Shown: positions 17,324 to 50,987, counted from the stretch's first letter. The stretch is DNA of 64,000 nucleotides from Minisyncoccota bacterium (GCA_017992005.1 JAGOPO010000001.1:4646-68645), one strand, 5' to 3'. Notes: generated by a model from the sequence alone, not told the origin. A program made the numbers and translations.

Positions 17324-17369
17324 GAGCCCTCCTTGGACTCTGAAGCCTCGTGATTGAGACTTATATTAT

Positions 17370-17398
17370 ATTATACCAAATTGGCAGATAGTCGTCAA
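17370..17398 (-). promoter_or_regulatory. Canonical sigma70 promoter TTGACG-17nt-TATAAT on the minus strand driving ORF 16712..17323
   Basis: Minus-strand -35 = plus 17393-17398, -10 = plus 17370-17375. Confidence 0.55.
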
Positions 17399-17434
17399 TA
17401 TCGTGAAGTGAAGCGAAAATGCTATATTTTGAGC

Positions 17435-18568: not shown

Positions 18569-19710
18569 TTGTAGGCTTTCCCTACGTTCGTGAGAGATAT
18601 TTCGCCACATTTCGTCACTGGCCAATATCGGGGCAAGTTTCGTTTCTCCTCCCGCGTATTTGGTCTACGAAAAATGGCAAGGTCGTATTCTCTCCTCCTG
18701 TCGATCCTAATATCGCTACAACCCGAGCGTATTTTCACCATTCGCACTATCCGATTATCGGCGGTTTATTAAAGGGCTTTATGCCCGGATTCGCAGTACA
18801 TCTTTGGAGGCATCGTCGTGATGTGCGGTTGGTGTATAGCTGTAGCGAGCCGATACTGCTGACGACACTATTTCAGGCTATGTGGTCAAAAATACTTGGA
18901 AAGAAACATATTGTTTTTACGTGGGAGAACATACCATATACGGAAAAATTTCGCGGGCTCTCTCTTTGGGTTCACCTCTGTATTTTACGAATTAATCTTG
19001 CTCTTTCCGATGGTCTTATATGTGGCAATAGTGAGGGGGCGCTCGTTCATAGTGAATATACAAAAAAACCTATCGAAATAATTCCAATGAATGGTCTCGA
19101 TTGCGATGTGTTCGTGAAAGACTCTGCGACTCTTCGGCCTTCTCACTTGATGGGCGCCACAGTTTATACATTCATTGGAGCGATAGGATATCGAAAAGGG
19201 ATCCAAAATATTATCAAGGCATTTCCTGATGTCATCGCGAGGGTGCCAAATGCGCATTTGATTATTGCAGGTTCTGGTGAGTACGAGCAACAAGTTGACG
19301 CGCTTATTGGAGAGCTTAATCTTCAAGACCGTATTGCGAGATTTCCATGGGTCGAGCAAAAAGAACTTATCCGTATTCTCTCACTTTCAGATGTATTCCT
19401 TTACCCGAGTATCCCGCATGGTGGGTGGTCGGAGCAGTTTGGGTATTCTATGGCCGAGGCATCTCTTATGGAGCTACCTGTTATTGCCACGCATACAGGC
19501 TCCATCGCAGACATCGTAATTGATGGCGAAACTGGAATCCTTGTGCCCCCCGATAATGTCAATGACTTGGGAGAGGCTATGATTCGATTGGGAACGGATT
19601 CTGCGCTGCGAGAGCATCTTGGAGCGGCAGGTCGTCGATATATTTCTGAGCGATTTTCGCATCAAGCCATCGCTCAGCGTTTCTCCGAATTTTTAAATCA
19701 ATATCTATGA
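18553..19710 (+). CDS. Glycosyltransferase family 4
   Basis: EQFGYSMAEASLMELPVIATHTGSIADIVIDGETGIL motif. Confidence 0.8.
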   Translation: MQEILIVGFPYVRERYFATFRHWPISGQVSFLLPRIWSTKNGKVVFSPPVDPNIATTRAYFHHSHYPIIGGLLKGFMPGFAVHLWRHRRDVRLVYSCSEPILLTTLFQAMWSKILGKKHIVFTWENIPYTEKFRGLSLWVHLCILRINLALSDGLICGNSEGALVHSEYTKKPIEIIPMNGLDCDVFVKDSATLRPSHLMGATVYTFIGAIGYRKGIQNIIKAFPDVIARVPNAHLIIAGSGEYEQQVDALIGELNLQDRIARFPWVEQKELIRILSLSDVFLYPSIPHGGWSEQFGYSMAEASLMELPVIATHTGSIADIVIDGETGILVPPDNVNDLGEAMIRLGTDSALREHLGAAGRRYISERFSHQAIAQRFSEFLNQYL

Positions 19711-19743
19711 ATCCAACTATCGATATGATAGCCTACTACTGTT

Positions 19744-20781
19744 GTGGGCCAAGAGATGAAAGGTAAAATAGTATTGGTTTTTCCTGGAGGGTCGTTTTTT
19801 ACAGACCCATTTCTGCGTTCATTCGAGCGGGCGGGCTACGAGTGTGTTGTTTTTGATTATAGACAAGGAGTCGTCTTTACTAGTGCTATCCTGCGCCGCG
19901 CTCTCAATCGTTTTCCTTTTTTAAGAATCTTAAAACGGTGGCAAGTTGCGAGGACGAATCGTATGCTCGTAGAACTAGTTCGGACATATAATCCGAAGTA
20001 TTTATTCGCGCAAAAAGGCGAACATATTTATCCTGAAACCATCGAGAGAATAAAAACAATGGGCGTGGTGACACTCAATTTTTATAACGATCAAATGAAT
20101 CAGTGGAATGTCATCTCTAAAATAGCGCCGTCGTACAATTATTTTTTCAACGAATGCCATTTGGTACTTCGTAGACTTTGGAGCGAGTGTGCTCTTACGA
20201 ATTGTTTTTATCTAGCGCATTCAGCGGAGCCGCTCACCGAAGACCTGCTGGTTACCGATAAGAAATATCCAATTTCCTTTATTGGTACGCATAACAAGAC
20301 TCTCTACCCCAAGCGCGAGAGGTATCTCATGGCTATTCGCGATCTCGGCCTCAATATTTGGGGCACCGATGGGTGGGCGGCAAGTCCCCTCAAGGATTGT
20401 TTTCGTGGGCGTTCTCGCGGTGAAGAGCGGTTCGCCATATATGCTAATAGTAAGATAGTCATTGATATTAATTATGAGTTCGTACCAGCAGAAGGCGTTA
20501 ATAATAGGCCATTCGAAGTTGCTGGTTGTGGTACTCTATTGGTAACTGATTATGTGAGAAAGGATTTAGAAAGGGAGTATTCTTCTGGGGTGGAGGTGGT
20601 TCAGTTCAAGGATGAGGCGGAGTTAAGGGAGAAAGTGAAATATTATCTAGACCACGACGATGAACGCCTGAAGGTTGCTATGGCCGGGTATCGAAGAACG
20701 GTTGCCGACCATACCTACGACAGAAGGGTTGCACAAATTTTTGATACTATGCAGCACCCCCAGAATTATTTATTCCAATGA
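19744..20781 (+). CDS. CgeB-family / Glyco_trans_1_2-type glycosyltransferase
   Basis: C-terminal block CGTLLVTDYVRKDLEREYSSGVEVVQFKDEAELREKVKYYLDHDDERLKVAMAGYRRTVADHTYDRRV matches the CgeB-like signature. Confidence 0.65.
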   Translation: MGQEMKGKIVLVFPGGSFFTDPFLRSFERAGYECVVFDYRQGVVFTSAILRRALNRFPFLRILKRWQVARTNRMLVELVRTYNPKYLFAQKGEHIYPETIERIKTMGVVTLNFYNDQMNQWNVISKIAPSYNYFFNECHLVLRRLWSECALTNCFYLAHSAEPLTEDLLVTDKKYPISFIGTHNKTLYPKRERYLMAIRDLGLNIWGTDGWAASPLKDCFRGRSRGEERFAIYANSKIVIDINYEFVPAEGVNNRPFEVAGCGTLLVTDYVRKDLEREYSSGVEVVQFKDEAELREKVKYYLDHDDERLKVAMAGYRRTVADHTYDRRVAQIFDTMQHPQNYLFQ

Positions 20782-21662
20782 AACTAATTACTACATTAAG
20801 AAAATTAGGTCTACGATTTTCCCGCTTCATCATTCCTCATCTGCCACGAGGGCGAAGTCTTGCCATTAGAGCCGCCTTAGCTTTATTTGGAAACATATAT
20901 GGAGGCGTTATCGCTCTCCCCGATGGGCGGAAATTCTATATTGACAAGATTTCACTCGTAAAGCGGCATTTATTTTTTGTAGATACATATGAAGAAATAG
21001 AATCAAGAATTATTGAGCGCATTGTCGGGGCTGGAGACTACGCCCTTGATGTGGGTGCTAGTTATGGTTGGTACACTGTTCTTATGAGTAGACTCGTTGG
21101 GGACTCCGGAAAGGTGTTTGCGTTTGAATTAGTGCCGCATATCGCAGAAGAATGCAGATATAATATTTCGCTGAACCACCAAAGCGCCAATACCGTGATT
21201 GAGAGTGTCGCGCTGGGGGAGAGTGACGCAGTCGTGAGCTATATCTATTCGGATGATTTAGGACTAGGAAATTTAAATCCAAGAGGTCTTACAGATGGTG
21301 GTCGAATGACGAGTGGCCAGGGGGCAATTACCGCGTTGGACAAATACGCAGAAGATAATGGAATCCAAAAATTGAATTTCATAAAATGCGACGTAGACGG
21401 AGCGGAGGTATTGTTCTTGCGGGGTGCACGGAAGACGATAGCGAAATTCCTACCTGCGATCATCATAGAAGCAAGCGGTGCCCATGGGCGATCATCTTGC
21501 TATGAAATATTCGATGAATTAAGTCGGTATGGTTACTCATTCTTCTCGTTGCATTACAAAAAAAGGCTACGACCTATAAACGAAGAGAATTTCAGAGGAG
21601 CTTTTAAGGAGAATATACTCTGTCTTCCTGAGAATAAATTGGATATACTACGGAGCCTGTGA
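20778..21662 (+). CDS. FkbM-family SAM-dependent methyltransferase
   Basis: DVGASYGWYT...FAFELVP and NFIKCDVDGAEVLFLRGARKTI motifs. Confidence 0.8.
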   Translation: MKLITTLRKLGLRFSRFIIPHLPRGRSLAIRAALALFGNIYGGVIALPDGRKFYIDKISLVKRHLFFVDTYEEIESRIIERIVGAGDYALDVGASYGWYTVLMSRLVGDSGKVFAFELVPHIAEECRYNISLNHQSANTVIESVALGESDAVVSYIYSDDLGLGNLNPRGLTDGGRMTSGQGAITALDKYAEDNGIQKLNFIKCDVDGAEVLFLRGARKTIAKFLPAIIIEASGAHGRSSCYEIFDELSRYGYSFFSLHYKKRLRPINEENFRGAFKENILCLPENKLDILRSL

Positions 21663-21672
21663 GTCAATTGTT

Positions 21673-22401
21673 ATGAAAAAAGCAATAAAACAATATGGGC
21701 GCAAGATTTTTGATTATTTAGGCTTGAAGATTTCCTTCATAGACCGGAGACAGGTATCCGACGTTAATAGACTGAAATGGTTGAGAGATCTAAATATCAG
21801 AACAGTCATTGATATTGGAGCGAGCAAAGGCGGCTTCTCAGCTGAATTGCATGGAGTATTACCAGAAGCTCAAATTTACGCCTTTGAGCCATTATCTGAC
21901 TGCTTCGCCCAAATTCAGGAGCGCATGAAGGGCGTGTCAAAATTTCGTGCATTCAACCTCGCCCTTGGTGATACCCCGGGGAAGGTGGTAATGCATCGGA
22001 GCTCATATTCCGGGTGTTCCTCACTCCGTGAAATGGCAAGCCTCCATAAGGACACCTTCCCAGTTACTGCGGGGCAGGAGACGATTAGCGTTGCGGTAAG
22101 CACGCTCGATGAAGCACTTAGCGATTATAGCTTAGAAGAAAATATCATGGTAAAAATAGACGTTCAGGGATTCGAAGATAAAGTTATAGCTGGAGGCTTA
22201 GAGATGTTGAAACGGTCTCGTGTGATACTTATCGAGACATCGTTCAAGGAGCTGTATGTTGGGCAGCCACTCTTCGATGGGGTCTATCACTTATTGCGAA
22301 GTCTTGGTTTCCAATATCGTGGTGCTTGGGCGCCGGAACTTAAGAGCCCATTGGACGGGTCGCCACTTCAGCAGGATAGTATATTTATCCGCGAAGGATA
22401 A
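21673..22401 (+). CDS. FkbM-family SAM-dependent methyltransferase
   Basis: VIDIGASKGGFS...IYAFEPL and MVKIDVQGFEDKVIAGGLEML. Confidence 0.8.
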   Translation: MKKAIKQYGRKIFDYLGLKISFIDRRQVSDVNRLKWLRDLNIRTVIDIGASKGGFSAELHGVLPEAQIYAFEPLSDCFAQIQERMKGVSKFRAFNLALGDTPGKVVMHRSSYSGCSSLREMASLHKDTFPVTAGQETISVAVSTLDEALSDYSLEENIMVKIDVQGFEDKVIAGGLEMLKRSRVILIETSFKELYVGQPLFDGVYHLLRSLGFQYRGAWAPELKSPLDGSPLQQDSIFIREG

Positions 22402-22485
22402 TTGTCCGCCTGAAGTATCTTGGATTGAGGGTCGAGAGGGGGATTGTTTAGATACTATGAACTAATAGATGATAGCATCGAATTT

Positions 22486-23610
22486 ATGAAAGGACTCCTT
22501 TATATTACAAATCTTCGTTTGCCGACAGAGAAGGCATACGGTATTCAGATAGTAAAAATGTGCGAAGCTTTTGCGAATCAGGGCGTTGCACTCGAGCTTA
22601 TGATGCCCTCACGGCAGGTGGTTATCAGAGAGGATATATTCAGTTATTACAATATTCAAAAGAATTTTCGGACTAATAAATTAAGAACGCCGGACTTCTA
22701 TCTTCCCGGAATACTTGACGGGATTGCTGTGATAATAAAAGAATTTATTTCTGCAGTAATTATTGTTTTCGCCGTTCTCGCGTCCAAGTCTGAGAATATT
22801 TACTCACGAGATGAACTACCTATTTTTCTTCTTAGTTTCTTTCGGAAAAATATCATATTTGAAGCGCATAGATACTCTCAGCGTCGAGTTTGGTATTATC
22901 GTAGATTTAGAAATTCTGGCATTAAAGTGGTGGCGATCTCTAGCGGTGTGCATGAGAAATTTATGCAGATGGGATTCACATCGAGTCAGGTTCTATTAGC
23001 GCCTGACGGCGTTGATGTGGGCCAGTTCCAAGACGCCCTATCAAAGAAGGAGTGTCGAGATTATTTAAAATTGCCGCACGACAAGATTTTGGTCACGTAT
23101 GCTGGCCAGCTCTACCCGTGGAAAGGTGTTGACTCATTAATGGAAGCCGCGAGGTCGCTTGATGAACGTTTCCAGGTTGTTGTAGTGGGTGGATCCAAGG
23201 TAGATGTGGCTAGGTATTCAAAAAAATATGCTGGCTGCTTGAACGTTTCATTCATTGGTTGGCGTCCGCATCGCCTCGTGCCAATGTTTTTGGCGGCTTC
23301 AGATATTCTAATTTTGCCTAATTCTAGCAAAGAAGACATATCCAAGATTTACACCTCTCCTCTAAAAATGTTTGAATATATGGTTAGTGAACGTCCAATA
23401 GTTGCGTCCGACTTGCCTTCAATTCGCGAAATACTGACGGACGAGATGGCTTATTTTGTAAGTCCGGATGACGCACTGTCACTAGCAGCTGGGGTGGTGG
23501 CGGCGGCAACAGATGTCGAGGGATCCTTACGGCGTGCATCGAATGCTCGTAGTGCTGTTACTCAATATTCCTGGGATGAACGAGCGCGGAGCATTTTAAG
23601 ATTGTTCTGA
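22486..23610 (+). CDS. Glycosyltransferase family 4
   Basis: MKGLLYITNLRLPTEKAYGIQ N-terminus; C-terminal KMFEYMVSERPIVASDLPSIREILTD; an upstream in-frame start at 22444 is possible. Confidence 0.75.
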   Translation: MKGLLYITNLRLPTEKAYGIQIVKMCEAFANQGVALELMMPSRQVVIREDIFSYYNIQKNFRTNKLRTPDFYLPGILDGIAVIIKEFISAVIIVFAVLASKSENIYSRDELPIFLLSFFRKNIIFEAHRYSQRRVWYYRRFRNSGIKVVAISSGVHEKFMQMGFTSSQVLLAPDGVDVGQFQDALSKKECRDYLKLPHDKILVTYAGQLYPWKGVDSLMEAARSLDERFQVVVVGGSKVDVARYSKKYAGCLNVSFIGWRPHRLVPMFLAASDILILPNSSKEDISKIYTSPLKMFEYMVSERPIVASDLPSIREILTDEMAYFVSPDDALSLAAGVVAAATDVEGSLRRASNARSAVTQYSWDERARSILRLF

Positions 23611-23632
23611 ATATTGTAGTCACACGAGAACA

Positions 23633-24493
23633 GTGAAAACAATCATTGTAACGGGGAGCTCCGGACTCATTGGTTCAGCTCTAGTAAAGCACCTGGTCCG
23701 TCAAGGATACTTCGTGCGTGCCTTTCAACGGCGGATACCTATGAAGAAAATTACAAACGTCGAGTACGTTTGTTTCGATCTTGCACATGTTATGGATGCT
23801 GATTTGGAAGGTGCTGACGTTATCGTTCACTGCGCATATCAAACAAGCGTTGCTTCTGAGGAGACCGTAGAGGGTAGAAATGCAGATATCATTGCAGCTG
23901 AACGATTGGTCCAGCATGCACAAGCAAAGAATCAGCGCATCATTTTTCTCTCTTCGTTTTCAGCATGCAAAGACGCAAAATCATACTACGGAAAAAATAA
24001 ATATCGAGTTCAAAACTTCTTTGAATCAAAAGGGGCGGTGGTGCTGAGATTAGGTATTGTTGTTGGGGGTGTAATCGGATTATTCGGTAAATTAAAATCA
24101 AGTATCCGGAAGTCGCCCATTATCCCACTGCTCGATGGGGGTAATCAATGTCTTCAGGTCGTGGCTCTTGATGATGTATGTAGGATTATTGAGAGGTGTG
24201 TCGAGGATTCTATGGTGGGTGTCTTTGATATTGCACATCCACACGTGATGACATTGCGACAGCTAGCTCAAGGAATACAGTGCCAGTTGAAAGTACGTCG
24301 ATTGTATTTGTCGCTTCCAAGCTGGTTCGCGTATTACGCGGTTCGCGTAGTTGAGGTATTGCGAATTCCGTTGACGTTCTCCTCCCAGAATATCTTAGGA
24401 ATATATGATTTGCGAACAAGCACGCGCATTCGCGTTCCTGAGATATTTGGTATACGATTGCGGTCGTATAGTGAGATGTTTGAGGTGATCTAG
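23633..24493 (+). CDS. NAD(P)-dependent epimerase/dehydratase (extended SDR)
   Basis: Rossmann motif IIVTGSSGLIGSALVKHL at the N-terminus; GTG start. Confidence 0.7.
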   Translation: MKTIIVTGSSGLIGSALVKHLVRQGYFVRAFQRRIPMKKITNVEYVCFDLAHVMDADLEGADVIVHCAYQTSVASEETVEGRNADIIAAERLVQHAQAKNQRIIFLSSFSACKDAKSYYGKNKYRVQNFFESKGAVVLRLGIVVGGVIGLFGKLKSSIRKSPIIPLLDGGNQCLQVVALDDVCRIIERCVEDSMVGVFDIAHPHVMTLRQLAQGIQCQLKVRRLYLSLPSWFAYYAVRVVEVLRIPLTFSSQNILGIYDLRTSTRIRVPEIFGIRLRSYSEMFEVI

Positions 24494-24497
24494 CTCA

Positions 24498-25226
24498 ATG
24501 AATATACCTCGTCAACTACCCGACTTATCAATTGTAGTTTTGTGTTACAAGAGTGGCGAGACGATTGAGGCGTACATTGAGCAAATGGAGACGGAGTTGC
24601 ATGCTGGGGGAATGGAGAGCTATGAACTTGTATTGGTTGGCAATTATATGGCGGGGTCGTCAGATACAACGCCAACTGTTATTCGTAGGATGGCTGCTCA
24701 TAATGCGAGGGTTCGTCCTGTGACCCTCGAAAAAAGGGGAATGATGGGATGGGACGCGCGAATGGGGATGAAGGCGGCCACGGGGCGATCGATAGCGCTC
24801 ATTGATGGCGATGGACAGATGCCGTCACGTGATATTGTCCGATTGTATCGCGTTCTTACGAGTGGCGAGTTTGACATGGTGAAGACATTTCGAAAAACGA
24901 GAATGGATGGGCCCTATCGTCGATTTATTTCTGGCTGGTATAATGCACTCTTTCGCCTCGTGTTTCCGCTCGTAACTTTTCGCGATGTTAACGCAAAGCC
25001 AAAGCTTTTGACGCGAGAGGCATATCAACGGATGCAGTTTACAAGTAATGACTGGTTTATTGATAGCGAGATAATGCTTGAATCAATGCGTTTGGATATG
25101 AATGTCGCCGAAGTACCTACGGTTTTTTTCAAAAATGAATGGCGAGGTAGCTTTGTGAAGCTATGGACGATATTTGAGTTTATGGGAAACCTCGCCTATT
25201 ACCGCATCAAATATTGGTTTCAATGA
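24498..25226 (+). CDS. GT2 polyprenyl-phosphate glycosyltransferase (DPM1/GtrB-like)
   Basis: LSIVVLCYKSGE...IALIDGDGQMPSRDI (DXD) and DPM1-like C-terminal region. Confidence 0.8.
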   Translation: MNIPRQLPDLSIVVLCYKSGETIEAYIEQMETELHAGGMESYELVLVGNYMAGSSDTTPTVIRRMAAHNARVRPVTLEKRGMMGWDARMGMKAATGRSIALIDGDGQMPSRDIVRLYRVLTSGEFDMVKTFRKTRMDGPYRRFISGWYNALFRLVFPLVTFRDVNAKPKLLTREAYQRMQFTSNDWFIDSEIMLESMRLDMNVAEVPTVFFKNEWRGSFVKLWTIFEFMGNLAYYRIKYWFQ

Positions 25227-26014
25227 AGACGAGCGATCCAAAATTTCGAGTACTGCAGCAGCCAGCGCAAGCGAGCTTGCCAGCTTTTGAGGCTGAAAAA
25301 AGAATTGCCTCAAATCGTTTAAAGACTTTTTTTAAGCAGTGGCCAGGATTGTATCTGTTCCTACGGGAAACATTCGGTCCGACCCACTCTCCCTTCAACG
25401 GGTTTTATTTGAGTCGTCGTGTTCGCGATATTTTTACGGCTGTTGGGGCAAACGCTATCGTAATGAATGTAGGATCTGGTGCGACGCGCGTTCATCCAGA
25501 AATTATTAACGTTGATATTTTCCCCTTTCGCGGTGTTGATCTCGTCGCGGACATTGGAGATCTACCGCTTCGCGATGCTGTTGTAGATGGCGTGGTGTGT
25601 GATTCTGTGCTTGAGCACTTGCCTGATACATCGCGTGCCCTCACGGAGATTGCGCGAGTGCTCAAGCCCGGTGGGGTCTTCTTGGTGACGGGACTTTTCA
25701 TGTACCCATACCACTCTTCTCCGAGCGATTATTATCGGTGGACTGAGCAGGGCACGCGTTATCAATTGGAGCTTCATGGATTTCACATAGAAGAGTTAGG
25801 CGTACGAGGGGGTCCCATGGGAGCTCTTCAAGGCGTTCTCATGCATATTTTTGCTATGCCGTTTTCCCGTGTTTCTCCCGCGCTCTATTTCGGTATGGTA
25901 CAATTTTTCATGGTGCTCTTTTCGCCGCTCAAAATTCTCGATCTCATCTGGATGCGATTGCCCGCTTCACTGGAATTGGCATCCGATGTATATGTAGTTG
26001 CCATCAAAAAATAA
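25214..26014 (+). CDS. Class I SAM-dependent methyltransferase (Methyltransf_11-like)
   Basis: VDGVVCDSVLEHLPDTSRALTEIARVLKPGGVFLVT. Confidence 0.75.
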   Translation: MVSMKTSDPKFRVLQQPAQASLPAFEAEKRIASNRLKTFFKQWPGLYLFLRETFGPTHSPFNGFYLSRRVRDIFTAVGANAIVMNVGSGATRVHPEIINVDIFPFRGVDLVADIGDLPLRDAVVDGVVCDSVLEHLPDTSRALTEIARVLKPGGVFLVTGLFMYPYHSSPSDYYRWTEQGTRYQLELHGFHIEELGVRGGPMGALQGVLMHIFAMPFSRVSPALYFGMVQFFMVLFSPLKILDLIWMRLPASLELASDVYVVAIKK

Positions 26015-26421
26015 TGTTGAATTATCAAATAATTCGTTTCCTTATCGGCGGGGCATTTGTTTTCTGTGTTAGTATTGGCCTTCTCTATTTTTTTGTTGAT
26101 ATTCTTGGCATTTGGTATCTCTGGGGTACCACGCTCTCATTTCTTATTTCTCTCGGTATTAGTTTTGCTGTTCAGAAATATTGGACGTTTCGAGATGCCT
26201 CTACCGAGCGCCTCAAGGGGCAGATGGGAGTCTACGCAACGCTACAAGTAATCAATCTTGCTGCAAATGACGGATTGATGTATATCGGTGTAGAATTCGC
26301 GCACATGCCGTATCTCCTAGTTCAAGTATTTACTGCCGGTAGTATTGCTATTTGGTCGTATTTTGCATTTCGCTACCTGTTTAAAAGTACTCATTTTCAG
26401 CCCGTCGCAACTATCACATGA
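26014..26421 (+). CDS. GtrA-family membrane protein (polyprenyl-P-sugar translocation associated)
   Basis: 135 aa, 4 TM, IRFLIGGAFVFCVSIGLLYFFVD...FAVQKYWTFRD (GtrA signature). Confidence 0.8.
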   Translation: MLNYQIIRFLIGGAFVFCVSIGLLYFFVDILGIWYLWGTTLSFLISLGISFAVQKYWTFRDASTERLKGQMGVYATLQVINLAANDGLMYIGVEFAHMPYLLVQVFTAGSIAIWSYFAFRYLFKSTHFQPVATIT

Positions 26422-27179
26422 GAGCCACTATTATTCTGCCAACCTATAACGAGATAGAAAACATTGGGTATTTGATTCGAGCTATTGATGTGGCGGTGAA
26501 GGGTGAGAAGGAGATTCTCATCGTAGATGATAATTCACCCGATGGCACATCTCGTGCCGTGCAGGATATAATCGATGCGGGCGAGGTCTCCAATGTTCGG
26601 CTGATCAAACGTCTTCACAATAGAGGACTCGCCAATAGTATTCGTGACGGGATTTCGCACGCTCGCGGAGATGTGGTGGTTTGGATGGATTGTGATTTTT
26701 CGATGCCGCCCGATATCATTCCCTCACTACTTGTAGAAATTGACCACGGTTGTGACATTGCGGTTGGATCTCGCTTTGTTGAAGGGGGGAGCTTTAAGAA
26801 GAATACCTCTGATTCACAGGATTCCTGGGTGGCTGTTTTGTTGAGTCGCGGATTGAACGTCTTTATTCGCGTTCTCTTGGGCGGATGGTTTAAAGATTAT
26901 ACGAGTGGTTTTATTGCTGTTCGGAAGAATGTTTTTGAAAAAGTGCAATTTGGCGGTGACTATGGTGAGTATTTTATGGAAATCATTTTACGAGCGCGCC
27001 TCTACAACTTCAAGATTGTCGAAATTCCATATGTCTGCCTTCCGCGGGCTCGCGGCCAATCAAAAACTGGAACGAACATGAAGCAATACTTGAAGCGTGG
27101 CCTGAAGTACGTTCACACTGCTTTTCGATTACTTTGGATACGATTGAAATACGACCTCTTTCGAGTCATTGATGCATGA
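26418..27179 (+). CDS. GT2 dolichyl/polyprenyl-phosphate glycosyltransferase (DPM1/GtrB-like)
   Basis: IILPTYNEIENIGYLI...ILIVDDNSPDGT...VVVWMDCDFSMPPDI. Confidence 0.85.
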   Translation: MRATIILPTYNEIENIGYLIRAIDVAVKGEKEILIVDDNSPDGTSRAVQDIIDAGEVSNVRLIKRLHNRGLANSIRDGISHARGDVVVWMDCDFSMPPDIIPSLLVEIDHGCDIAVGSRFVEGGSFKKNTSDSQDSWVAVLLSRGLNVFIRVLLGGWFKDYTSGFIAVRKNVFEKVQFGGDYGEYFMEIILRARLYNFKIVEIPYVCLPRARGQSKTGTNMKQYLKRGLKYVHTAFRLLWIRLKYDLFRVIDA

Positions 27180-27772
27180 TTGAGCCACTAGATGATGCTC
27201 GAATATCAGACGTCGTCGCTCTTCACCAGCAAGTGCTCGGTCACACACTTAATTCGCGGTTGGGGCCATGGTTTCTCCATAAACTCTATCGGCAGACAGT
27301 GCTTTCCAGACAGAACGGATTTTGTTATATCTATACGAATGAATCCGAGATCGTTGGATTCATTAGTTTTTGCCGTGATCACCATCGACTTGAGAGTGAG
27401 ATTCGTAGGAGTCTCTCGTTTCGTGACCGGATGCGCGTAGCAGTGATACTCTTGGCGCATCCGTCGTGGTGGCCACCGCTCCTTCGTCAGCTTCTCTTCT
27501 CTCGATTTCTGGTGTCCCGCTATCCAGAGCAGTATTCATTGATTCTTACGCTTGGAGTTGCGCCGGATCAACAAGGCAAGGGAGTCGGTTCGCAACTCAT
27601 CCAAAAGGCGATTACAGTCGTCGCCGCTCTAGGGGTTCAAGATTTTTTTGTCGATACAGAAGTTACTAATACAGCAGCGATTGAAACCTATAAGAAAAAC
27701 CTATTTAGCATGGTGGGTATAAAGTATGGGAATGTAATCTTACATTATGGAGCCTCGAGAAATAAAAGATAA
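27176..27772 (+). CDS. GNAT-family N-acetyltransferase
   Basis: Motif A-like LGVAPDQQGKGVGSQLIQKAI. Confidence 0.7.
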   Translation: MIEPLDDARISDVVALHQQVLGHTLNSRLGPWFLHKLYRQTVLSRQNGFCYIYTNESEIVGFISFCRDHHRLESEIRRSLSFRDRMRVAVILLAHPSWWPPLLRQLLFSRFLVSRYPEQYSLILTLGVAPDQQGKGVGSQLIQKAITVVAALGVQDFFVDTEVTNTAAIETYKKNLFSMVGIKYGNVILHYGASRNKR

Positions 27773-28160
27773 AAATCATAAAATTGTTGCTCATTTTTTT
27801 CCAAAAACGATGAGCGCTGATGGCTCTATTCGATTTTTGACGCCGCAGACCTATCCACTTCAGATTGGCCTGATAGAGCATCGAGATGGAAAAATGGTCC
27901 GACCACATATTCATCGCAACCTATTTTACGACGTCAATACTACGCAGGAGTATATTTACATTGAGAGAGGAGAAGGAATCGCGGTGACGATTTTTGATAC
28001 GGACTGGGTAGAGATTGAGAAGCTTTCCATGTCAGCGGGGGACTCGATTTTATTTGTTGGCGGAGGACATAGCCTTAATATCCCACCCAGCTGTCGTTTG
28101 CTCGAGGTCAAGCAGGGTCCGTATCCGGGTGATAAGGAGGCTAAGATTTTTAAGGATTAG
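27747..28160 (+). CDS. Small cupin-fold protein, possibly a WxcM/FdtA-like sugar ketoisomerase (uncertain)
   Basis: 137 aa; His-rich RPHIHRN and a beta-rich C-terminal half; sits between an acetyltransferase and a DegT aminotransferase; start uncertain (overlaps the upstream gene). Confidence 0.4.
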   Translation: MEPREIKDKNHKIVAHFFPKTMSADGSIRFLTPQTYPLQIGLIEHRDGKMVRPHIHRNLFYDVNTTQEYIYIERGEGIAVTIFDTDWVEIEKLSMSAGDSILFVGGGHSLNIPPSCRLLEVKQGPYPGDKEAKIFKD

Positions 28161-28163
28161 CCG

Positions 28164-29291
28164 ATGTTTATCCCTGTTAACGAGCCTAAGTTATCGATTG
28201 AAGCAAAGAAGTACGCTCACGACGCTATTGATAGTGGGTGGATTTCTTCGTCTGGGAAGTACGTTACTCAATTCGAAGATGATTTTGCTCGACTCTATGG
28301 CGTCAGGCATGCGATAGCGGTGTCAAACGGAACTGCCGCATTGCATGTGGCACTGTTGGCGCTTCATATCGGTCAAGGAGATGAAGTTATCGTGCCTGCG
28401 TTTACGATGGCAGCGTCGTGGCTTGCGGTTCTCTACACCGGTGCGACGCCCGTGTTTGTCGACTGCGACGCTACGACCTACAATATCGATGTTCATCGCA
28501 TCGAGGCAAAAATATCGTCCAAAACGAGAGCAATTATGCCCGTGCATATTTACGGTCAGCCGTGCGAGATGGACGAGATCCGCGCGCTAGCAAAGAGGCA
28601 CAATGTAGCCATTATTGAGGATGCCGCTGAAGCGCACGGCGCACTCTACAGGGGTCGCTTAGCTGGCACCTTAGGCGATGTCGGATGCTTTAGTTTTTAT
28701 GGCAACAAAATTATTACCACTGGTGAGGGCGGGATGATTATTACCAATGACGATTCTATTGCAGCGCAATGTAGAAAAATCAAAGATCTTCATCATTCGT
28801 CGACGAGGTTTATTCATGATGGGGTAGGGTACAATTATCGTATGACAAATATGCAGGCTGCGCTCGGATGTGGAGAGCTTGCTCATCTTCAGGAATATAT
28901 TGAGAAAAAACGGTGGATGGCTCAACTGTATAAGCGTCACCTTCAGGGCATTGCCGGAATTCAGCTTCCACGTGAAGTGGAGCACGCCCATAGTGTGTAC
29001 TGGATGTATGCGATTGTTATAGATGAGCATAAATTTGGAATGAACAAACAGCAATTACGCGCCGGCCTCAAGGATGTTGGAATAGACACGCGTGATTTTT
29101 TTTATCCGCCAGAGCAGCAACCAGTATTGCGGAAGATATTAGGAGGGGAGGTTTTTCCCGTGGCAGCGGACCTTGCTCATCGAGGCTTGTATCTACCCTC
29201 GGGCTTAGCTCTTACGGAAGCCCAGCTTCTCTATGTATGCAAGAGCATTGAGCTTCTGCACCGAAGAAATACTGCATGTCCCATAGATTAA
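28164..29291 (+). CDS. DegT/DnrJ/EryC1/StrS-family PLP-dependent sugar aminotransferase
   Basis: AIAVSNGTAALHVAL..., FSFYGNKIITTGEGGMIITND (Lys-containing active-site block). Confidence 0.9.
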   Translation: MFIPVNEPKLSIEAKKYAHDAIDSGWISSSGKYVTQFEDDFARLYGVRHAIAVSNGTAALHVALLALHIGQGDEVIVPAFTMAASWLAVLYTGATPVFVDCDATTYNIDVHRIEAKISSKTRAIMPVHIYGQPCEMDEIRALAKRHNVAIIEDAAEAHGALYRGRLAGTLGDVGCFSFYGNKIITTGEGGMIITNDDSIAAQCRKIKDLHHSSTRFIHDGVGYNYRMTNMQAALGCGELAHLQEYIEKKRWMAQLYKRHLQGIAGIQLPREVEHAHSVYWMYAIVIDEHKFGMNKQQLRAGLKDVGIDTRDFFYPPEQQPVLRKILGGEVFPVAADLAHRGLYLPSGLALTEAQLLYVCKSIELLHRRNTACPID

Positions 29292-30973
29292 CCCTGCTTG
29301 TGCTGATCGTAGTAAGCGGTCTTATGTCTCTCGCTGCATTTATTCCAGTGATTACCTCGGACTCATTTCGAGGTGTAATGCCTCGCCTTGTTGACGACGA
29401 TTTGTATTACTACGCAAGAATGCGTGAAGTTTTTGATGGTAATTTAATGGTTGGTAATCCGTATTTTTTAGAGCATGCGGAGGCTCCGTCAGTTGCCTTT
29501 TCGCTGACTGATGTAGTTGCTGCGACGCCTCTATTGCTTGGCATGCCTTTTGTTGCCGTGGTTATTACAAACCATATTTTGTGGTCAATCTTGTTCGTTG
29601 TCCTAACATACTGGCTCGTATATCTCATTACTCGACATCGCTACGTGTCAGCGTTCGGTGCTATTTTTGCGTATGTACAGGTGTACTGGCTCATACTAAG
29701 GCCCGTAATTATGCAGCAGGTATTCCCATTTTTTACACTGTTTCTAATCTCTTTCTTCTATTGGCTAGAATCAACAACATCTAAGAAGAGAATAGTAGCT
29801 CTCACGCTATCTGCTGCAGCTACGTTTTATATCTATGGCTTCTTGTGGCAAGTTGTTTTCTTTATCATGCTTGTTGGGTTGCTATTAAAAATAATGCAAC
29901 GCGCATGGGGGGACGTTCGAACTCTCCTGCTCGTTGCAGGAGGGGTCGCTATTCTTGCGCTACCAGCAATTATCTATGCCGTGCAAGGTTTTTCAGATTT
30001 GATATTTTGGGAGACGCTCGATCGCGTTGGCTTAGTATTTACACGTCTACCCGCACTCGATTCATATTATTATGGTCGCTGGATGATATTTCTATTGGCA
30101 ACCGGATGGGTCATACATCGATGGCTGAATATCAAACAGAGACCGATAATTACACGTACTGCGTTGGGTCTCTTTTTGGCAAGCGTGAGCGCTGTCGCCG
30201 TAGGATCAGATTTCGCCACCGGCCAACATGTTGGGCGGTTCATTACATTCTTTTTTTCTATTGCTATTATTGTGCAACTCTATGACGTGTGGGAGCAGCG
30301 TGATGCAATGAAAGAAGTATCATCCCTTAAAATATCTACGCTGTTAGTCCTTCTTAGTATTGGATCTGCGTTTCTCATAAATAATGTGCAGCGCGCAGTC
30401 CCGTTGGGTCGATTAAGCATCGGCGGCACCTCATCGGTGCAGTCGATCGCTGAGCCGCTACGCTGGCTTGAGGCGTATGTTCCAGAGAAGAGCGTCGTGA
30501 TGGCAAATGACGTCTTAAGTTCTTATATACCGATTATGACAAAACATGCGGTGGCGTGGAGCCATGCGGGTAGCCTATACCATATGAGCATAGCAGAGGT
30601 GGAGGAGAGGTTTTTTATGGCGCAATCGTCGGCGCTATCAAGGGATCAGGTGCTTGCAAAACTTGGAGAGATAGATGGGGCTGGAATTGAGCGACGTCTT
30701 GCGGACTCCTACCATAAACAGCAATTGAGATGTCTCCTCTTTATGCCCTGTCATCCCACAACATCACTTTCTCGATTTGTAGGAGCGGAGCGTTTAGATC
30801 GTTTGATGATTGTTCAAGATCGTATTCGGTCAGATATGTATGCTGCATTGCAGCGTTACAATGTTGATTATCTTTTGGTCGATACGTTCGTGGATATTGT
30901 TCCATCTACAATCATGAAGTATTGCGTTATCGTCTGGAATGATGACCGTTATATCATTTATAAAATCAACTAA
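29276..30973 (+). CDS. Polytopic membrane protein with a C-terminal soluble domain; candidate GT-C-fold glycosyltransferase (unassigned family)
   Basis: More than 10 predicted TM helices; acidic DDD motif in the first extracytoplasmic loop (RLVDDDLYYYARMREVFDGN); paralog of the next gene. Confidence 0.5.
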   Translation: MSHRLTLLVLIVVSGLMSLAAFIPVITSDSFRGVMPRLVDDDLYYYARMREVFDGNLMVGNPYFLEHAEAPSVAFSLTDVVAATPLLLGMPFVAVVITNHILWSILFVVLTYWLVYLITRHRYVSAFGAIFAYVQVYWLILRPVIMQQVFPFFTLFLISFFYWLESTTSKKRIVALTLSAAATFYIYGFLWQVVFFIMLVGLLLKIMQRAWGDVRTLLLVAGGVAILALPAIIYAVQGFSDLIFWETLDRVGLVFTRLPALDSYYYGRWMIFLLATGWVIHRWLNIKQRPIITRTALGLFLASVSAVAVGSDFATGQHVGRFITFFFSIAIIVQLYDVWEQRDAMKEVSSLKISTLLVLLSIGSAFLINNVQRAVPLGRLSIGGTSSVQSIAEPLRWLEAYVPEKSVVMANDVLSSYIPIMTKHAVAWSHAGSLYHMSIAEVEERFFMAQSSALSRDQVLAKLGEIDGAGIERRLADSYHKQQLRCLLFMPCHPTTSLSRFVGAERLDRLMIVQDRIRSDMYAALQRYNVDYLLVDTFVDIVPSTIMKYCVIVWNDDRYIIYKIN

Positions 30974-30986
30974 GCTTGGGGCGATC

Positions 30987-32789
30987 ATGCGACATCACGG
31001 CATCGCCATTGGCGCTGCACTTGTCGTCGCAATAGTTGCTGGGCTTCCGCAGCTTATCGTGCGCGACCGAGCGGGAGAGCTTGATAAAGGAGTGCCGTAT
31101 CTTGTGAATGATTCTGAGGGAGAATACCTGAGCCGCGTACGAGAGGTGTTAGATGGGCACCATAGAGTCGCTTCCCCAACAATGTATGAGTACAAGGATG
31201 CGCGTGTTCTCATGCCCCCGTATGCAGAGACACTATTCTATGCTCTGCCAACCATTATCACTGGCGCTTCACTGGAGAGCGTTATTTTCTATAGTAAGTG
31301 GATTCTACCGGCCCTCTTATTTCTTGTTATATATTTATTTGTTCGTGAGCTATTGCTGCATAAAGATGCATCAGCTCAAGTCGCCGCAGTGAGCGCGGGT
31401 CTCTTGGTCGTTCTTGGATATGATGCTTATGACTATCGGCATTTTTTTCAAGTGCTAGTCCACGGAGCTAGTGATCCTGCGGGTCTCCTATGGAATAGGC
31501 TGGTCCACCCAATTACAGGGGGTATTTTGCTTTTTGCATTTCTTTGGCAATTGTCAAAAATTGTACTGAGAAAAGAATCATGGTCGCATGTGGTAGCGGC
31601 TAGTCTCATCCTTGCATGTACGCCTGGATATTTCTTCGCGTTCGGATTATCGCTGGGTGTTCTGGTTTGTTCTGCATTGTATGCGTCGGCGTGGCGATGG
31701 TGGAGGTTGGTTGCAAGATTGGCGATCTGCGGCGTCATTGGTGTTGGGTTGAACCTGCCATACCTTGCTGGGGCTCTTATGGCAACCAACGGAGACGCTT
31801 CCGGAGACGCTTTTCGCTCTGGGATGTTTGCCACACATGCCTCGCTTATTAATTACATCTCCTTTGCGACACTGAGCGGCGCATTACTCGTGTTTCTCTT
31901 CTCTGTATTGAAAGGATGGGATTGGAGGGGGCGATGGTGGCTTATTGTTCTTTCGGTAGGTGGAACGATGGTTCTTGTCTACAACCAGCAGATTATTACT
32001 GGACGAGCGATTTGGCCACAGCATTTTGTTCAGTATACAACACCGCTATCAATGGCACTGCTCGTTACTCTTATTCATAATATTCTTCGAGAGCGCTCAC
32101 TAATACTGTGGAGGCTTTTCATTTCCTGCATCATCATTATTGCGTTGTTCTTTGGCTGGAGAGGTTTCCAATCGGCTACCTACGCTACGGTTCCTAAATA
32201 CATGGAGCTTCAAAGCTTCTCCGGTGTTATTTCGTATCTTCAGCAGTATGCAAAATTGGATTGCGTCGTTTATGCATTTCCTGCGTATCCCAATGAATTA
32301 AGTAGATTCATTCCTGCTTTGACAGGTTGCAACAACTATCATTCATTTTACATTTATAGTGGTATCCCTCGGGAGCGCATTCTTCATAATTACCTCGTAA
32401 ACCTACGATTTCGGAATTTATTACCAAAAGACGTGCGTCGACACTTTTATTCAGAGCCGTTTTTTAGCACGTCATACTTCTTTCGTGATTGGAATGATAT
32501 GCTATGTAATAACCTATCTGGTTGTGGAGATCGGTGGCAAGAGAAATTTGCTGATACAGCCGGGATTGATCGTTGGTTCGACGCAACTGAGCGAGAAATA
32601 GAAGAAGCATACTCAAGATTTCTAGAGGCGGATTTGTACGTAGAACTCATGAAATTTAAATTGGACTACGTTGTTGTTGATCGGCGATATGACGCACTGG
32701 TCAATGATCAAATCTACTCATTTCTCCGAAAAGTTCATGTTGATGATCAATTTATCCTGTATAGCGTTCGTCAAATTAAGTCGCGCTAA
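30987..32789 (+). CDS. Paralogous polytopic membrane protein; candidate GT-C-fold glycosyltransferase
   Basis: Same architecture, with a first loop (NDSEGEYLSRVREVLDGHH) parallel to the upstream gene; start chosen at the ATG 30987 (MRHHGIAIGAALVV); the ORF is open from 30939. Confidence 0.5.
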   Translation: MRHHGIAIGAALVVAIVAGLPQLIVRDRAGELDKGVPYLVNDSEGEYLSRVREVLDGHHRVASPTMYEYKDARVLMPPYAETLFYALPTIITGASLESVIFYSKWILPALLFLVIYLFVRELLLHKDASAQVAAVSAGLLVVLGYDAYDYRHFFQVLVHGASDPAGLLWNRLVHPITGGILLFAFLWQLSKIVLRKESWSHVVAASLILACTPGYFFAFGLSLGVLVCSALYASAWRWWRLVARLAICGVIGVGLNLPYLAGALMATNGDASGDAFRSGMFATHASLINYISFATLSGALLVFLFSVLKGWDWRGRWWLIVLSVGGTMVLVYNQQIITGRAIWPQHFVQYTTPLSMALLVTLIHNILRERSLILWRLFISCIIIIALFFGWRGFQSATYATVPKYMELQSFSGVISYLQQYAKLDCVVYAFPAYPNELSRFIPALTGCNNYHSFYIYSGIPRERILHNYLVNLRFRNLLPKDVRRHFYSEPFFSTSYFFRDWNDMLCNNLSGCGDRWQEKFADTAGIDRWFDATEREIEEAYSRFLEADLYVELMKFKLDYVVVDRRYDALVNDQIYSFLRKVHVDDQFILYSVRQIKSR

Positions 32790-33853
32790 TGAAAATTGCT
32801 GTACTAACACATGATGTTAATGTTTCCGCAGGTTGGGGCCGTTTTTCCGATCAGCTTATATCGGGACTGCGCGAACGAGGGCATGACGTTCTTGTGATAT
32901 CCGAAAGGGGCGGGGCTCATCCCGTGCTACGGCGGGGTATTGGGGTTCTCTGGTCTGTGGTTCGACTCCTTCCTCTTATTCGGACTGTTGATATCGTTCA
33001 CGCAATGGATGTCTATCCGTTTGGTGCTATTGCTTGGTTGGCCACTCGCATCATTAGGAAGCCGATCATATTTTCGGCGCAAGGAACCTACTCAATCGCA
33101 CCACTTGAAGTATCTCGTTATCGGCTACTATATCGCGTGATGACTCGGCGTGTAGATCGTGTGCTTGCTATTAGCCAATATACTGCTGATCGACTTACGG
33201 GGGCCCTCGGGTCGTCTTGCTCGATATCGGTAATACATCATGGCGTTGATCTTGAGCGATGGAGGATAGATGTGAGCACGGGCCTTCAGCGCGATCAAGC
33301 GGTCATCTCTGTGGGTTCTGTGAAATTCAGGAAAGGATATCATGTTGCGATCCGGGCATTTTCAGAAGCAAGAAAAAGCTTTCCCTCGCTGCAGTGGTGG
33401 ATTGTTGGTTCAACACGCGATAAGGGGTACATTGAAAAATTAAAGAAGCTTGCAGACTCATTGGGCGTGACCGATGCAATACATTGGTACGAAAATGTGA
33501 GTGACGATGAGTTGAGGCGCCTTTATTCTCGCGCGTCCGTATTTATGTTGCTATCGCAAAATCAGGGCGCGCACTTTGAAGGCTTCGGTTTAGTCTTTCT
33601 TGAGGCAGCAGCATGCGGTTTGCCTGTGATTGGAACTCGTGATAATGGAATTCAAGAGGCGATATCGGATGCAAATGGCATCCTCGTGCCGCAAGATGAT
33701 AGTGCCGCAGCTCGAGATGCTATAGTTTTATTACTATCTCATGAGGCGATTCGGAGGAGTATGGGCGAAGCAAGTGTGCGGTGGGCGAAATCGCATTCCA
33801 TTGATAGCGTCATTGACGAATATGAGCTACAGTATAAAGAGGTGATAGCATGA
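32789..33853 (+). CDS. Glycosyltransferase family 4
   Basis: EGFGLVFLEAAACGLPVIGTRDNGIQEAISDANGIL. Confidence 0.85.
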   Translation: MKIAVLTHDVNVSAGWGRFSDQLISGLRERGHDVLVISERGGAHPVLRRGIGVLWSVVRLLPLIRTVDIVHAMDVYPFGAIAWLATRIIRKPIIFSAQGTYSIAPLEVSRYRLLYRVMTRRVDRVLAISQYTADRLTGALGSSCSISVIHHGVDLERWRIDVSTGLQRDQAVISVGSVKFRKGYHVAIRAFSEARKSFPSLQWWIVGSTRDKGYIEKLKKLADSLGVTDAIHWYENVSDDELRRLYSRASVFMLLSQNQGAHFEGFGLVFLEAAACGLPVIGTRDNGIQEAISDANGILVPQDDSAAARDAIVLLLSHEAIRRSMGEASVRWAKSHSIDSVIDEYELQYKEVIA

Positions 33854-33863
33854 TGCCGCTTAT

Positions 33864-35042: not shown

Positions 35043-35044
35043 CT

Positions 35045-39786: not shown

Positions 39787-40299
39787 ATGTGGATCACACA
39801 ATACGACGTTCTTCGACCGAAATTCGCTTCAATTGAGATCCTCGCATTGGACTTTGACGGCACGCTTACTGATGGTTTTGTGCACGTCCGACAGGATGGC
39901 ATGGAGACCGTTCGGTGTAGTCGTCGTGATAGCTTGGGCACCAATTTGCTTCAGGCAGCAGGTGTCAAAGTGGTTATCATCTCCAAGGAGACGAATCCAG
40001 TTGTACAGACGCGTGCCCAGAAGATGAAGGTTGACTGCTATCACGGAGTAGCTACTGGCGAGGGCAAGCTTGAAATTCTTCGTCGATACGCAGCGGAACG
40101 CCAAGTTCCACTTGAGAGAGTGTCCTACATGGGAGATGACATCAACGATCTGGAGTGCATTAAGGCCGTAGGCCTTGGTATCACTGTTGCCGATGGCCAT
40201 CCCATGTGCATTGGAGGCGCTGATTTCGTGACTACGCGCAAGGGTGGCGAGCACGCGGTGCGCGAAGTCTGCGATCTTATTTTGGAGGCAAAACGATGA
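39787..40299 (+). CDS. HAD-superfamily KdsC-type phosphatase (KDO-8-P / nonulosonate-9-P phosphatase family)
   Basis: ILALDFDGTLTDG...VVIISKE...SYMGDDINDLECIKAVGLGITVADGHP. Confidence 0.85.
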   Translation: MWITQYDVLRPKFASIEILALDFDGTLTDGFVHVRQDGMETVRCSRRDSLGTNLLQAAGVKVVIISKETNPVVQTRAQKMKVDCYHGVATGEGKLEILRRYAAERQVPLERVSYMGDDINDLECIKAVGLGITVADGHPMCIGGADFVTTRKGGEHAVREVCDLILEAKR

Positions 40300-41907: not shown

Positions 41908-41914
41908 TCCGTTC

Positions 41915-41968: not shown

Positions 41969-41999
41969 TGCGCCAGCATTCTTTACAAGGAGATACGAA

Positions 42000-42968: not shown

Positions 42969-42972
42969 CGCA

Positions 42973-43009: not shown

Positions 43010-43021
43010 ACACTACACATA

Positions 43022-50977: not shown

Positions 50978-50987
50978 AGTAGTAAGT

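Follow-up and report, generated by a model that had tools for sequence, protein, structure and literature searches.

How a single run of genes might supply two different lipid-linked sugars, and where those sugars would go, is the question raised by a four-gene segment (positions 24498-27179) of a 64,000-nucleotide stretch of DNA from a Minisyncoccota bacterium (GCA_017992005.1, JAGOPO010000001.1:4646-68645), which as a whole we call the window. The segment encodes two family 2 glycosyltransferases (GT2a and GT2b), a methyltransferase (MT) and a small membrane protein of the GtrA family. A first-pass annotation, made from the sequence alone, read it as a source of polyprenyl-phosphate sugars for periplasmic glycosylation. 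Our follow-up supports most of that picture: with a probability of roughly 70%, we consider the genes to be part of a doubled three-component system of synthase, GtrA-family protein and GT-C glycosyltransferase. We describe the glycosylation as extracytoplasmic rather than periplasmic, since the host is a metagenome-assembled genome (MAG) of the Patescibacteria.

The open reading frame (ORF) calls place exactly four genes in the segment, all on the plus strand: GT2a (24498-25226, 242 aa; PF00535, E 3.3e-10), a class I S-adenosylmethionine (SAM) dependent MT (25223-26014, 263 aa; Pfam Methyltransf_11, E 8.6e-14), GtrA (26014-26421, 135 aa; PF04138 GtrA_DPMS_TM, E 5.3e-19) and GT2b (26418-27179, 253 aa; PF00535, E 8.3e-31). 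The same calls gave nothing notable on the minus strand. For the MT the start is most likely ATG 25223, which yields 263 residues and matches public gene calls, and not TTG 25214 (266 aa). With Pfam support for each ORF the annotated GT2-MT-GtrA-GT2 order is borne out, and the profile searches confirm Glycos_transf_2 in both GT2 enzymes and PF04138 in GtrA. The boundaries drawn around the four genes do not hold in the same way, since an upstream short-chain dehydrogenase/reductase (SDR) gene and downstream genes for a GNAT N-acetyltransferase, a cupin, an aminotransferase and two GT-C proteins belong to the same unit. Every junction from GT2a through the GNAT gene is an ATGA or TAATG overlap of stop and start codons, those of GtrA being shared with MT upstream and GT2b downstream, and all of this sits in a 20-gene co-directional array (17354-37137) with no intergenic gap longer than 42 nt. 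Most likely, then, the four genes are the centre of a ten-gene operon (23633-32789) within a surface-glycan island of about 40 kb, in a MAG labelled Ca. Pacebacteria. We take the genes to be real because proteins identical to those of the window recur on independent metagenome contigs, because GT2a has more than 1100 homologs, and because a second Patescibacteria MAG (locus L010, GT2a identity 85%) keeps the same order of SDR, GT2a, MT, GtrA, GT2b, GNAT, cupin, aminotransferase, the two GT-C proteins (M565 and M616) and a GT4 glycosyltransferase.

The reading depends on both GT2 enzymes being DPM1-like rather than processive, as had been proposed, and signs of a processive synthase were sought in both and not found: neither protein has a hydrophobic or transmembrane (TM) segment, a QxxRW motif or a PilZ domain, and the NCBIfam models for PgaC and NodC match them weakly and over the N-terminal part of the domain only. 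At 242 and 253 aa, both are also too short for such an enzyme. Their nearest solved relatives are all polyprenyl-phosphate (Pren-P) glycosyltransferases.

For GT2b this relationship is clear from the sequence. Searching the PDB sequences returned the dolichol-phosphate mannose synthase of Pyrococcus furiosus (PfDPMS, PDB 5mlz) as the nearest relative (E 2.4e-36), followed by ArnC (1e-18) and then GtrB. The PfDPMS alignment joins GT2b 1-227 to PfDPMS 23-242 and covers the catalytic domain as well as the juxtamembrane (interface) helices. The motifs PTYNE, VDDNSPD, D91-C-D93, GSRFVEGG, KDYTSGF and RARGQSK align with those of the DPMS enzymes, and the first three, aligned with both PfDPMS and ArnC, carry the canonical PxYNE, DDxSxD and DXD features. 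In NCBIfam the leading models are ArnC, a haloarchaeal Dol-P-hexose transferase, PgfS and AglJ; all of these matches fall far under the equivalog cut-offs, so the sugar of GT2b is not callable from them.

GT2a is more distant, sharing only 21% identity with GT2b. ArnC is the only family that it matches among the PDB sequences (E 4e-7), and its best NCBIfam match is PgfS. We therefore turn to its predicted structure. An AlphaFold (AF2) model built from 42 homologs has a pLDDT of 91.9, and the first 26 PDB matches of this model in Foldseek are ArnC, DPMS or GtrB chains, which cover all 242 residues with TMq values of 0.75-0.81. By its modelled fold GT2a is thus of the ArnC/DPMS/GtrB type. Soluble GT2 enzymes such as WrtF and RmlT appear lower in the ranking, as does GpgS (TMq 0.68). 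The metal site D103-G-D105-G-Q107 (I-D-G-D-G-Q-M-P in the clade) is invariant and corresponds to ArnC 100-DADLQN-105, in which the metal ligands are D102 and Q104 and D100 has been put forward as the base. The nucleotide site is another matter. The canonical nucleotide contacts of ArnC are P15, Y17, E19 and D48, and in the GT2a clade the positions of P15, E19 and D48 are the invariant L15, S19 and G48-N49, with a three-residue insertion. Where ArnC and DPMS have PxYNE and DDxSxD, the clade has LCY(K/R)S and LVGNY...DxTP, and N-x-K-P-K replaces the SGF motif. The clade probably retains the chemistry of its relatives and binds its donor differently. Given the low identity of the two GT2 enzymes, their differing nucleotide sites and their different partner enzymes, the earlier suggestion of two monosaccharide donors is plausible.

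The third component is GtrA. PF04138 covers its residues 8-122 (profile positions 1-115 of 117), and four hydrophobic helices can be recognised by eye. It matched no NCBIfam model, and phmmer against the PDB sequences gave nothing useful and no PfDPMS chain. PfDPMS's TM domain has been described as GtrA-like, and crystallographic data suggest that product flipping by it is possible (PMC12992685); the link between GtrA and this membrane domain follows from the Pfam family definition and that report, not from a direct alignment. Since GT2b is equivalent to no more than the catalytic part, and the gene just upstream that overlaps it codes for GtrA, the two together resemble a type-III DPMS that has been split and its parts put in reversed order. 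GtrA could be the membrane partner of the TM-less synthase no less than a flippase, and flippase activity is unproven even for most characterised GtrA members. We therefore regard GtrA as a candidate flippase and/or a candidate membrane partner (anchor, activator) of a TM-less synthase. GacJ offers a functional precedent: the complex that it forms with the GT2 synthase GacI has a Km for undecaprenyl phosphate (Und-P) about 17-fold lower and a Vmax about 340-fold higher.

GT-C enzymes use lipid-phosphate-linked donors, and two proteins of this kind close the operon. M565 (29276-30973, plus strand, 565 aa) has about 9-11 TM segments followed by a C-terminal domain, and M616 (30939-32789, plus strand, 616 aa) was modelled. 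Iterated profile searches and BLASTP of their N- and C-termini make them paralogs of one family. Pfam gave no match to 15 members of this family even at E values up to 1, NCBIfam gave none either, and the family profile finds no PDB chain. Because sequence profiles found nothing, the assignment to GT-C comes from the fold search only, in which the M616 model matches GT-C enzymes and nothing else. The model has the polytopic N-terminal helix arrangement of GT-C together with an extracytoplasmic domain, and by this modelled fold the family is a member of the GT-C superfamily. An acidic motif follows the first TM segment (NDSEGE in M616, VDDD in M565, family consensus DxE) and is a candidate for the catalytic motif of the first extracytoplasmic loop. 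The two GT-C-like membrane proteins named in the annotation therefore turn out to be one family, with the fold confirmed for the modelled 616-aa paralog.

A third protein, which the annotation called TMTC-like, lies at 9273-10973 (plus strand, 566 aa). It does have about 9-10 hydrophobic segments and a C-terminal TPR region, and only the TPR part matches anything (Pfam, the PDB and the Wzy_C-TPR protein at 47334-49613). Tests for a TMTC-, PMT- or Wzy-like identity confirmed it as a multi-TM protein with TPR repeats, not as a GT-C.

What connects GT2b to the genes that follow it? The GNAT (27176-27772, plus strand, 198 aa; Pfam Acetyltransf_1, with a weak WecD-like NCBIfam match), the small cupin (27747-28160, plus strand, 137 aa) and the DegT/DnrJ/EryC1 sugar aminotransferase (28164-29291, plus strand, 375 aa; Pfam 7.8e-121, LegC-, PseC- and ArnB-like by NCBIfam) fill the space from GT2b to the GT-C genes, their reading frames overlapping or almost abutting. 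The cupin, syntenic in the second Patescibacteria MAG, has no Pfam match and is weakly WbuC-like (TIGR04366, 26 bits against a cut-off of 42); it is a candidate sugar isomerase or epimerase. We searched 1.8 billion cluster representatives for relatives of GT2b. The closest are mostly of 230-270 aa and of the same TM-less form, and among the relatives are several fusions. Three join GT2b to a GNAT (P0233, whose GT2 part is 53% identical, P0243 and P0329), and in its GNAT domain P0233 shares 37% identity with the window protein (E 2e-27). One, P0257, joins a DegT aminotransferase to GT2b, with an aminotransferase domain 48% identical to the window's (E 1e-105), and another, P0348, joins GT2b to a PMT_2 domain. 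The fusions with orthologous GNAT and aminotransferase domains tie GT2b to the genes downstream, and the PMT_2 fusion ties it to GT-C. Taken from sequence, this suggests that the GT2b line is an Arn-like route for an N-acetylated amino sugar. Methyltransferase fusions of GT2b relatives also exist (P0292 and P0345); we do not use P0292 as evidence for the window MT, with which it has only the generic SAM core in common, and the C-terminal half of a further fusion, P0234, was rejected as a GNAT.

For GT2a the corresponding evidence comes from its neighbourhoods. Scanning one genome per GTDB species found 263 GT2a loci, and the counts below are for the best 80 of these (L010-L089), in which ORFs were called and searched with the window proteins. 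These 80 loci span at least seven phyla (Patescibacteria, Nitrospinota, Acidobacteriota, Verrucomicrobiota, Gammaproteobacteria, Planctomycetota and Bacteroidota). All are from MAGs, with no cultured organism among them, which may be why the clade is uncharacterised. In 65 loci the immediate neighbour of GT2a, in the same orientation, is an SDR ORF, and in several others an SDR comes one gene further away (for example in the order GT2a-MT-SDR). Large polytopic membrane proteins, taken as those of 400 aa or more with 6 or more TM segments, occur within 5 kb of GT2a in 72 of the 80 and are adjacent (within 300 nt) in 44. They are varied: 22 loci of the Nitrospinota type have a PMT_2 protein, 14 have a member of the M565/M616 family, whose gene often overlaps GT2a by a few bases, and others have proteins with no Pfam match. 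A homolog of the window MT follows GT2a in 15 loci. Two fusions add to this, one of GT2a to PMT_2 in a Doudnabacteria MAG (L072, 9878-12124, 748 aa) and one of SDR to a methyltransferase immediately after GT2a in a Planctomycetales MAG (L085, 10709-12415, 568 aa). From these neighbourhood counts the conserved core is GT2a, SDR and a GT-C-type membrane protein, with the MT a frequent extra; GtrA was considered as a general partner of GT2a and rejected. The expectation that GT-C partners would be present in related genomes is supported by the polytopic proteins, the PMT_2 genes of the Nitrospinota and the fusion in L072.

Some of these loci are of interest in their own right. Another Planctomycetales locus (L059, 5250-7529) encodes a fusion of a DPM1-like GT2 with PMT_2, of 759 aa. 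In L058 (4940-14646) and about 20 similar Nitrospinota loci, genes for LPG_synthase_TM, a GT4, a 310-aa GT2 and a PMT_2 GT-C are divergent from GT2a-SDR, and further out there are an MT and a GT4, together with a GacJ-like protein (DUF2304) and a GT2 of 270 aa. These loci, too, combine two Pren-P-type GT2 lines.

The SDR of the window (23633-24493, plus strand, 286 aa; Pfam Epimerase 1.8e-11, yfcH/HpnA-like by NCBIfam) is shorter than the GalE-type epimerases and keeps the YxxxK motif. Its nearest solved relative is 9g83_P, an 'NAD-dependent epimerase/dehydratase' (E 6e-14), followed by far weaker matches to a sugar-epimerase-family protein and to NDUFA9 subunits of complex I. There are precedents for two levels of action. 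In the Pgf operon a GT2 synthase goes with an epimerase of nucleotide sugars and a pair of paralogous membrane proteins (PMC5856776), whereas an SDR has been proposed to epimerise undecaprenyl-P-ribofuranose to the xylo form (PMC11127046). The data are compatible with either level, nucleotide sugar or lipid-linked sugar, for the SDR of the window. The MT has an ordinary class I SAM core followed by a hydrophobic C-terminal tail of about 60 residues, conserved in 18 homologs (GGPMGALQGVLMHIFA..FSPLKLLD), and one predicted membrane segment, which suggests that it works at the membrane.

From the gene content and its coupling, the domains and folds, the fusions and the neighbourhoods, we infer the following scheme, in which the enzymatic activities, both sugars, the lipid carrier, the means of flipping and the acceptor are all inferred. 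In one line GT2a would take a sugar off an activated donor and place it on polyprenyl phosphate at the inner membrane face; the SDR would tailor this sugar by epimerisation or keto-reduction and the MT would methylate it, each acting at the level either of the nucleotide sugar or of the lipid-linked one. In the other line, made up of GtrA, GT2b, GNAT, cupin and aminotransferase, the aminotransferase would make a nucleoside-diphosphate (NDP) amino sugar, GNAT would N-acetylate it and GT2b would load it onto polyprenyl phosphate. GtrA would supply the membrane domain absent from the TM-less synthases, and GtrA and/or one of the island's two Wzx-like proteins would move the polyprenyl-P-sugars to the outer leaflet. 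There the two GT-C paralogs would transfer both sugars outside the membrane, to an acceptor that could be a Wzx/Wzy polymer or surface proteins. The en-bloc route by Wzx and a phosphoglycosyltransferase (PGT), on which the annotation layered this one, has its genes in place in the island (Wzx-like, Wzy_C and Bac_transf). Lipid A is an unlikely acceptor in a Patescibacteria host.

There are a number of points that weigh against this scheme. Neither GT2 has a TM anchor, where GtrB, ArnC, yeast DPM1 and PfDPMS have one of 1-4 TM segments, and it is the juxtamembrane helices in the fold match and the neighbouring GtrA that suggest a membrane location for GT2a and GT2b; both enzymes are in a TM-less state that we take to be like that of human DPM1, which needs a partner. 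In GT2a the canonical contacts with the nucleotide, PxYNE and DD, are missing, and it may therefore use something other than an ordinary UDP- or GDP-sugar as donor, and GT2b has Ser in place of the metal-binding Gln (DADLQH) of DPMS, ArnC and GtrB. A GtrA homolog was found near GT2a in just 3 of the 80 loci by iterated search. The enrichment of polytopic proteins around GT2a, seen in 41 of the 46 loci with full flanks for the inner 5 kb and in 23 of 46 for the 10 kb of DNA lying 5-10 kb away, has an imperfect control because the distant flanks are part of the same glycan islands. For the aminotransferase, the operon shows no 4,6-dehydratase that would feed it. Its highest scores are with the LegC and PseC models, and with a NeuB/CMP-transferase set 9-14 kb downstream it could serve nonulosonic-acid synthesis instead. 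Finally, the GT2a clade and the M565/M616 family are both uncharacterised biochemically.

These points can be assembled into other explanations. One possibility that takes the last of the pathway arguments at face value is that only GT2b and GtrA form a lipid-sugar synthase, a split type-III DPMS that may flip its own product, polyprenyl-P-mannose or its counterpart with a similar hexose, while the aminotransferase, GNAT and cupin belong to a nonulosonic-acid pathway of the PseC/PseH or LegC/LegH kind. That GT2b is closest to a mannose-specific archaeal DPMS would fit, as would the weak match of the GNAT to PseH, the leading LegC/PseC scores, and the NeuB, CMP-sugar cytidylyltransferase and HAD phosphatase genes in the window. 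However, the fusions of GT2b relatives with orthologous GNAT and aminotransferase domains are hard to explain without a common pathway, and the three genes are enclosed between GT2b and GT-C in near-abutting frames, which makes this explanation an unlikely one to our mind. The set in question, at 37118-37876 (minus strand) and 39787-44663 (plus strand), encodes a CMP-sugar cytidylyltransferase, a HAD phosphatase, a xylose-isomerase-like TIM barrel, a classical SDR, NeuB and two methyltransferases, and it is a rival to GT2b for what the aminotransferase and GNAT produce.

GT2a could also be separated from the lipid route. If it acted on a non-polyprenyl acceptor, such as the head group of a glycolipid or a metabolite of the phosphoglycerate type, and the SDR worked in turn on what it made, then the invariant and non-canonical motifs of its nucleotide site, the presence of GpgS among its fold matches, the NDUFA9-like, membrane-peripheral and not GalE-like relatives of the SDR and the rarity of GtrA in GT2a loci would all be accounted for. 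The 26 top fold matches are Pren-P glycosyltransferases with TM-scores above that of GpgS, though, and a polytopic protein accompanies GT2a in nine tenths of the loci, in the Nitrospinota loci tested as a PMT_2 GT-C and in L072 as a fusion, so we think such an acceptor quite improbable. The most conservative proposal would make both GT2s cytoplasmic Leloir enzymes that build an Und-PP-linked Wzx/Wzy repeat unit like the island's many GT4s, with GtrA and the polytopic proteins serving elsewhere. Both GT2s are without TM helices, GT2s of about 250 aa are common in O-antigen and exopolysaccharide clusters, the island holds a complete PGT/Wzx/Wzy_C set, and WrtF and RmlT among the lower fold matches are soluble. 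Against this, the best relatives by sequence and by fold are exclusively Pren-P glycosyltransferases and the likeness includes their C-terminal juxtamembrane helices; both GT2s have relatives fused to a PMT_2 GT-C, and in the window they are coupled to GtrA and followed by two GT-C-fold genes. We give this proposal very little credence. The doubled glycosylation system accordingly remains the reading that we prefer. A stronger version of it, in which GT2a represents a new clade of Pren-P glycosyltransferases with SDR and O-methyl tailoring at the lipid level, M565 and M616 a new GT-C family, and GT2b the head of an Arn-like N-acetylamino sugar line, is more tentative, and we would sooner expect it to fail in some part than to hold throughout. 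If true, a sugar would be epimerised or reduced and then O-methylated on the lipid before its transfer by GT-C, and the Arn-like line would have an acceptor other than lipid A.

How does this unit compare with the systems already described? Mechanistically it is to be placed with GtrABV, CsbB/GtcA/YfhO, GacIJKL, Pgf and Arn, as a known mechanism with new component families. GtrA/GtrB/GtrV of Shigella and Salmonella phages and CsbB-GtlA/GtcA/YfhO-GtlB of Bacillus and Listeria bring together a GT2 Pren-P synthase, a GtrA-family protein and a GT-C, as does the window. The window differs in having two synthases and two GT-C paralogs for a single GtrA, synthases without the C-terminal TM helices of GtrB, GT-Cs without a Pfam model, and an SDR, MT, GNAT, cupin and aminotransferase embedded among them. 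Within PfDPMS, GT2b aligns with the whole catalytic and interface region and the membrane domain is GtrA-like according to the literature, but in the window these are separate genes with GtrA first, the Gln of DADLQH is the Ser mentioned above, and phmmer found no match for GtrA.

The likeness to the Arn pathway is in the order of aminotransferase, N-acylation, ArnC and ArnT, with the GNAT of the window in place of the ArnA formyltransferase and GtrA where Arn has the small membrane protein ArnE/F. Only ArnB-like, ArnC-like and ArnT-fold parts are present, and no ArnD deacylase/deformylase and no ArnA decarboxylase were found among the scanned ORFs. The Pgf system of S. mutans (PgfS, PgfM1, PgfE, PgfM2; PMC5856776) shares with the window a GT2, an SDR epimerase and two paralogous polytopic proteins. 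In contrast to the window, PgfS has TM helices, PgfE is a GalE-type UDP-hexose 4-epimerase where the window has the shorter HpnA/NDUFA9-like SDR, and pgf is without MT or GtrA. In GacI/J/K/L, which serve the GlcNAc side chain of the group A carbohydrate, and in PpgS/Rv3632 a GT2 Pren-P synthase is activated by an adjoining, sometimes fused, small membrane protein, the route being completed by a flippase of the Wzx type and a GT-C; the Wzx homolog of Gac is the proposed flippase of GlcNAc-P-Und, and the window has two Wzx-like genes. This is an analogy only, as GacJ and Rv3632 are DUF2304 and not GtrA proteins, and the DUF2304-GT2 pair occurs in Nitrospinota GT2a loci while the window has none. 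A precedent for an SDR acting after the synthase is the pentofuranose system of Citrobacter youngae (ORF12-15/GT136), where the SDR (ORF13) is proposed to epimerise the lipid-linked sugar before flipping and the GT-C acts after polymerisation (PMC11127046). The synthase there is a UbiA-family, phosphoribosyl pyrophosphate (PRPP)-dependent enzyme and the flippase a MATE protein, neither of which is in the window. What is distinctive of the window unit is thus the combination of TM-less synthases, a clade with a non-canonical nucleotide pocket, an unmodelled GT-C family, the embedded tailoring enzymes and the doubling round one GtrA.

These comparisons do not overturn the current understanding of such systems; they extend a known mechanism to new families and lineages. 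The genomes of Patescibacteria are tiny and these bacteria rely on contact with their host cells, and about 40 kb given to surface glycans, including a doubled lipid-linked-donor route, would make glycan decoration a major investment for them. The GT2-GNAT and aminotransferase-GT2 fusions point to a loading of lipid carriers with amino sugars, in the manner of Arn, well outside polymyxin resistance. Leads that could be followed are the widespread GT2 clade, which is nearly always paired with an SDR and a GT-C, the GT-C family that is invisible to Pfam, and the fusions themselves.

The rest of the island holds further features. A protein matching Glyco_trans_1_2 only, followed by two FkbM-family methyltransferases, is encoded at 19744-22401 (plus strand), and with four further methyltransferases in the island these two suggest a heavily methylated glycan. 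The 472-aa product of 35719-37137 (plus strand) has a weak C-terminal match to TagF, a CDP-glycerol glycerophosphotransferase, and its gene adjoins that of the cytidylyltransferase, which hints that this glycan may also be decorated with glycerol or ribitol phosphate. Between the two parts of the nonulosonic-acid-like set, at 37942-39669 (minus strand), is a 575-aa B12-binding radical SAM protein that may carry out sugar C-methylation or radical tailoring; similar genes flank a GT2a homolog in a genome of 3.4 Mb (L009). At the edges of the island stand two proteins without a Pfam match, one of 1095 aa with an N-terminal hydrophobic segment (5891-9178, plus strand) and one of 616 aa with no hydrophobic segment (50961-52811, plus strand), which may be glycosylation substrates or novel enzymes. 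A mobile or viral origin of the island was also considered; its composition is unremarkable and no tRNA is present. Proteins with DUF5671 and with a lamin-tail domain are encoded at the left end of the window.

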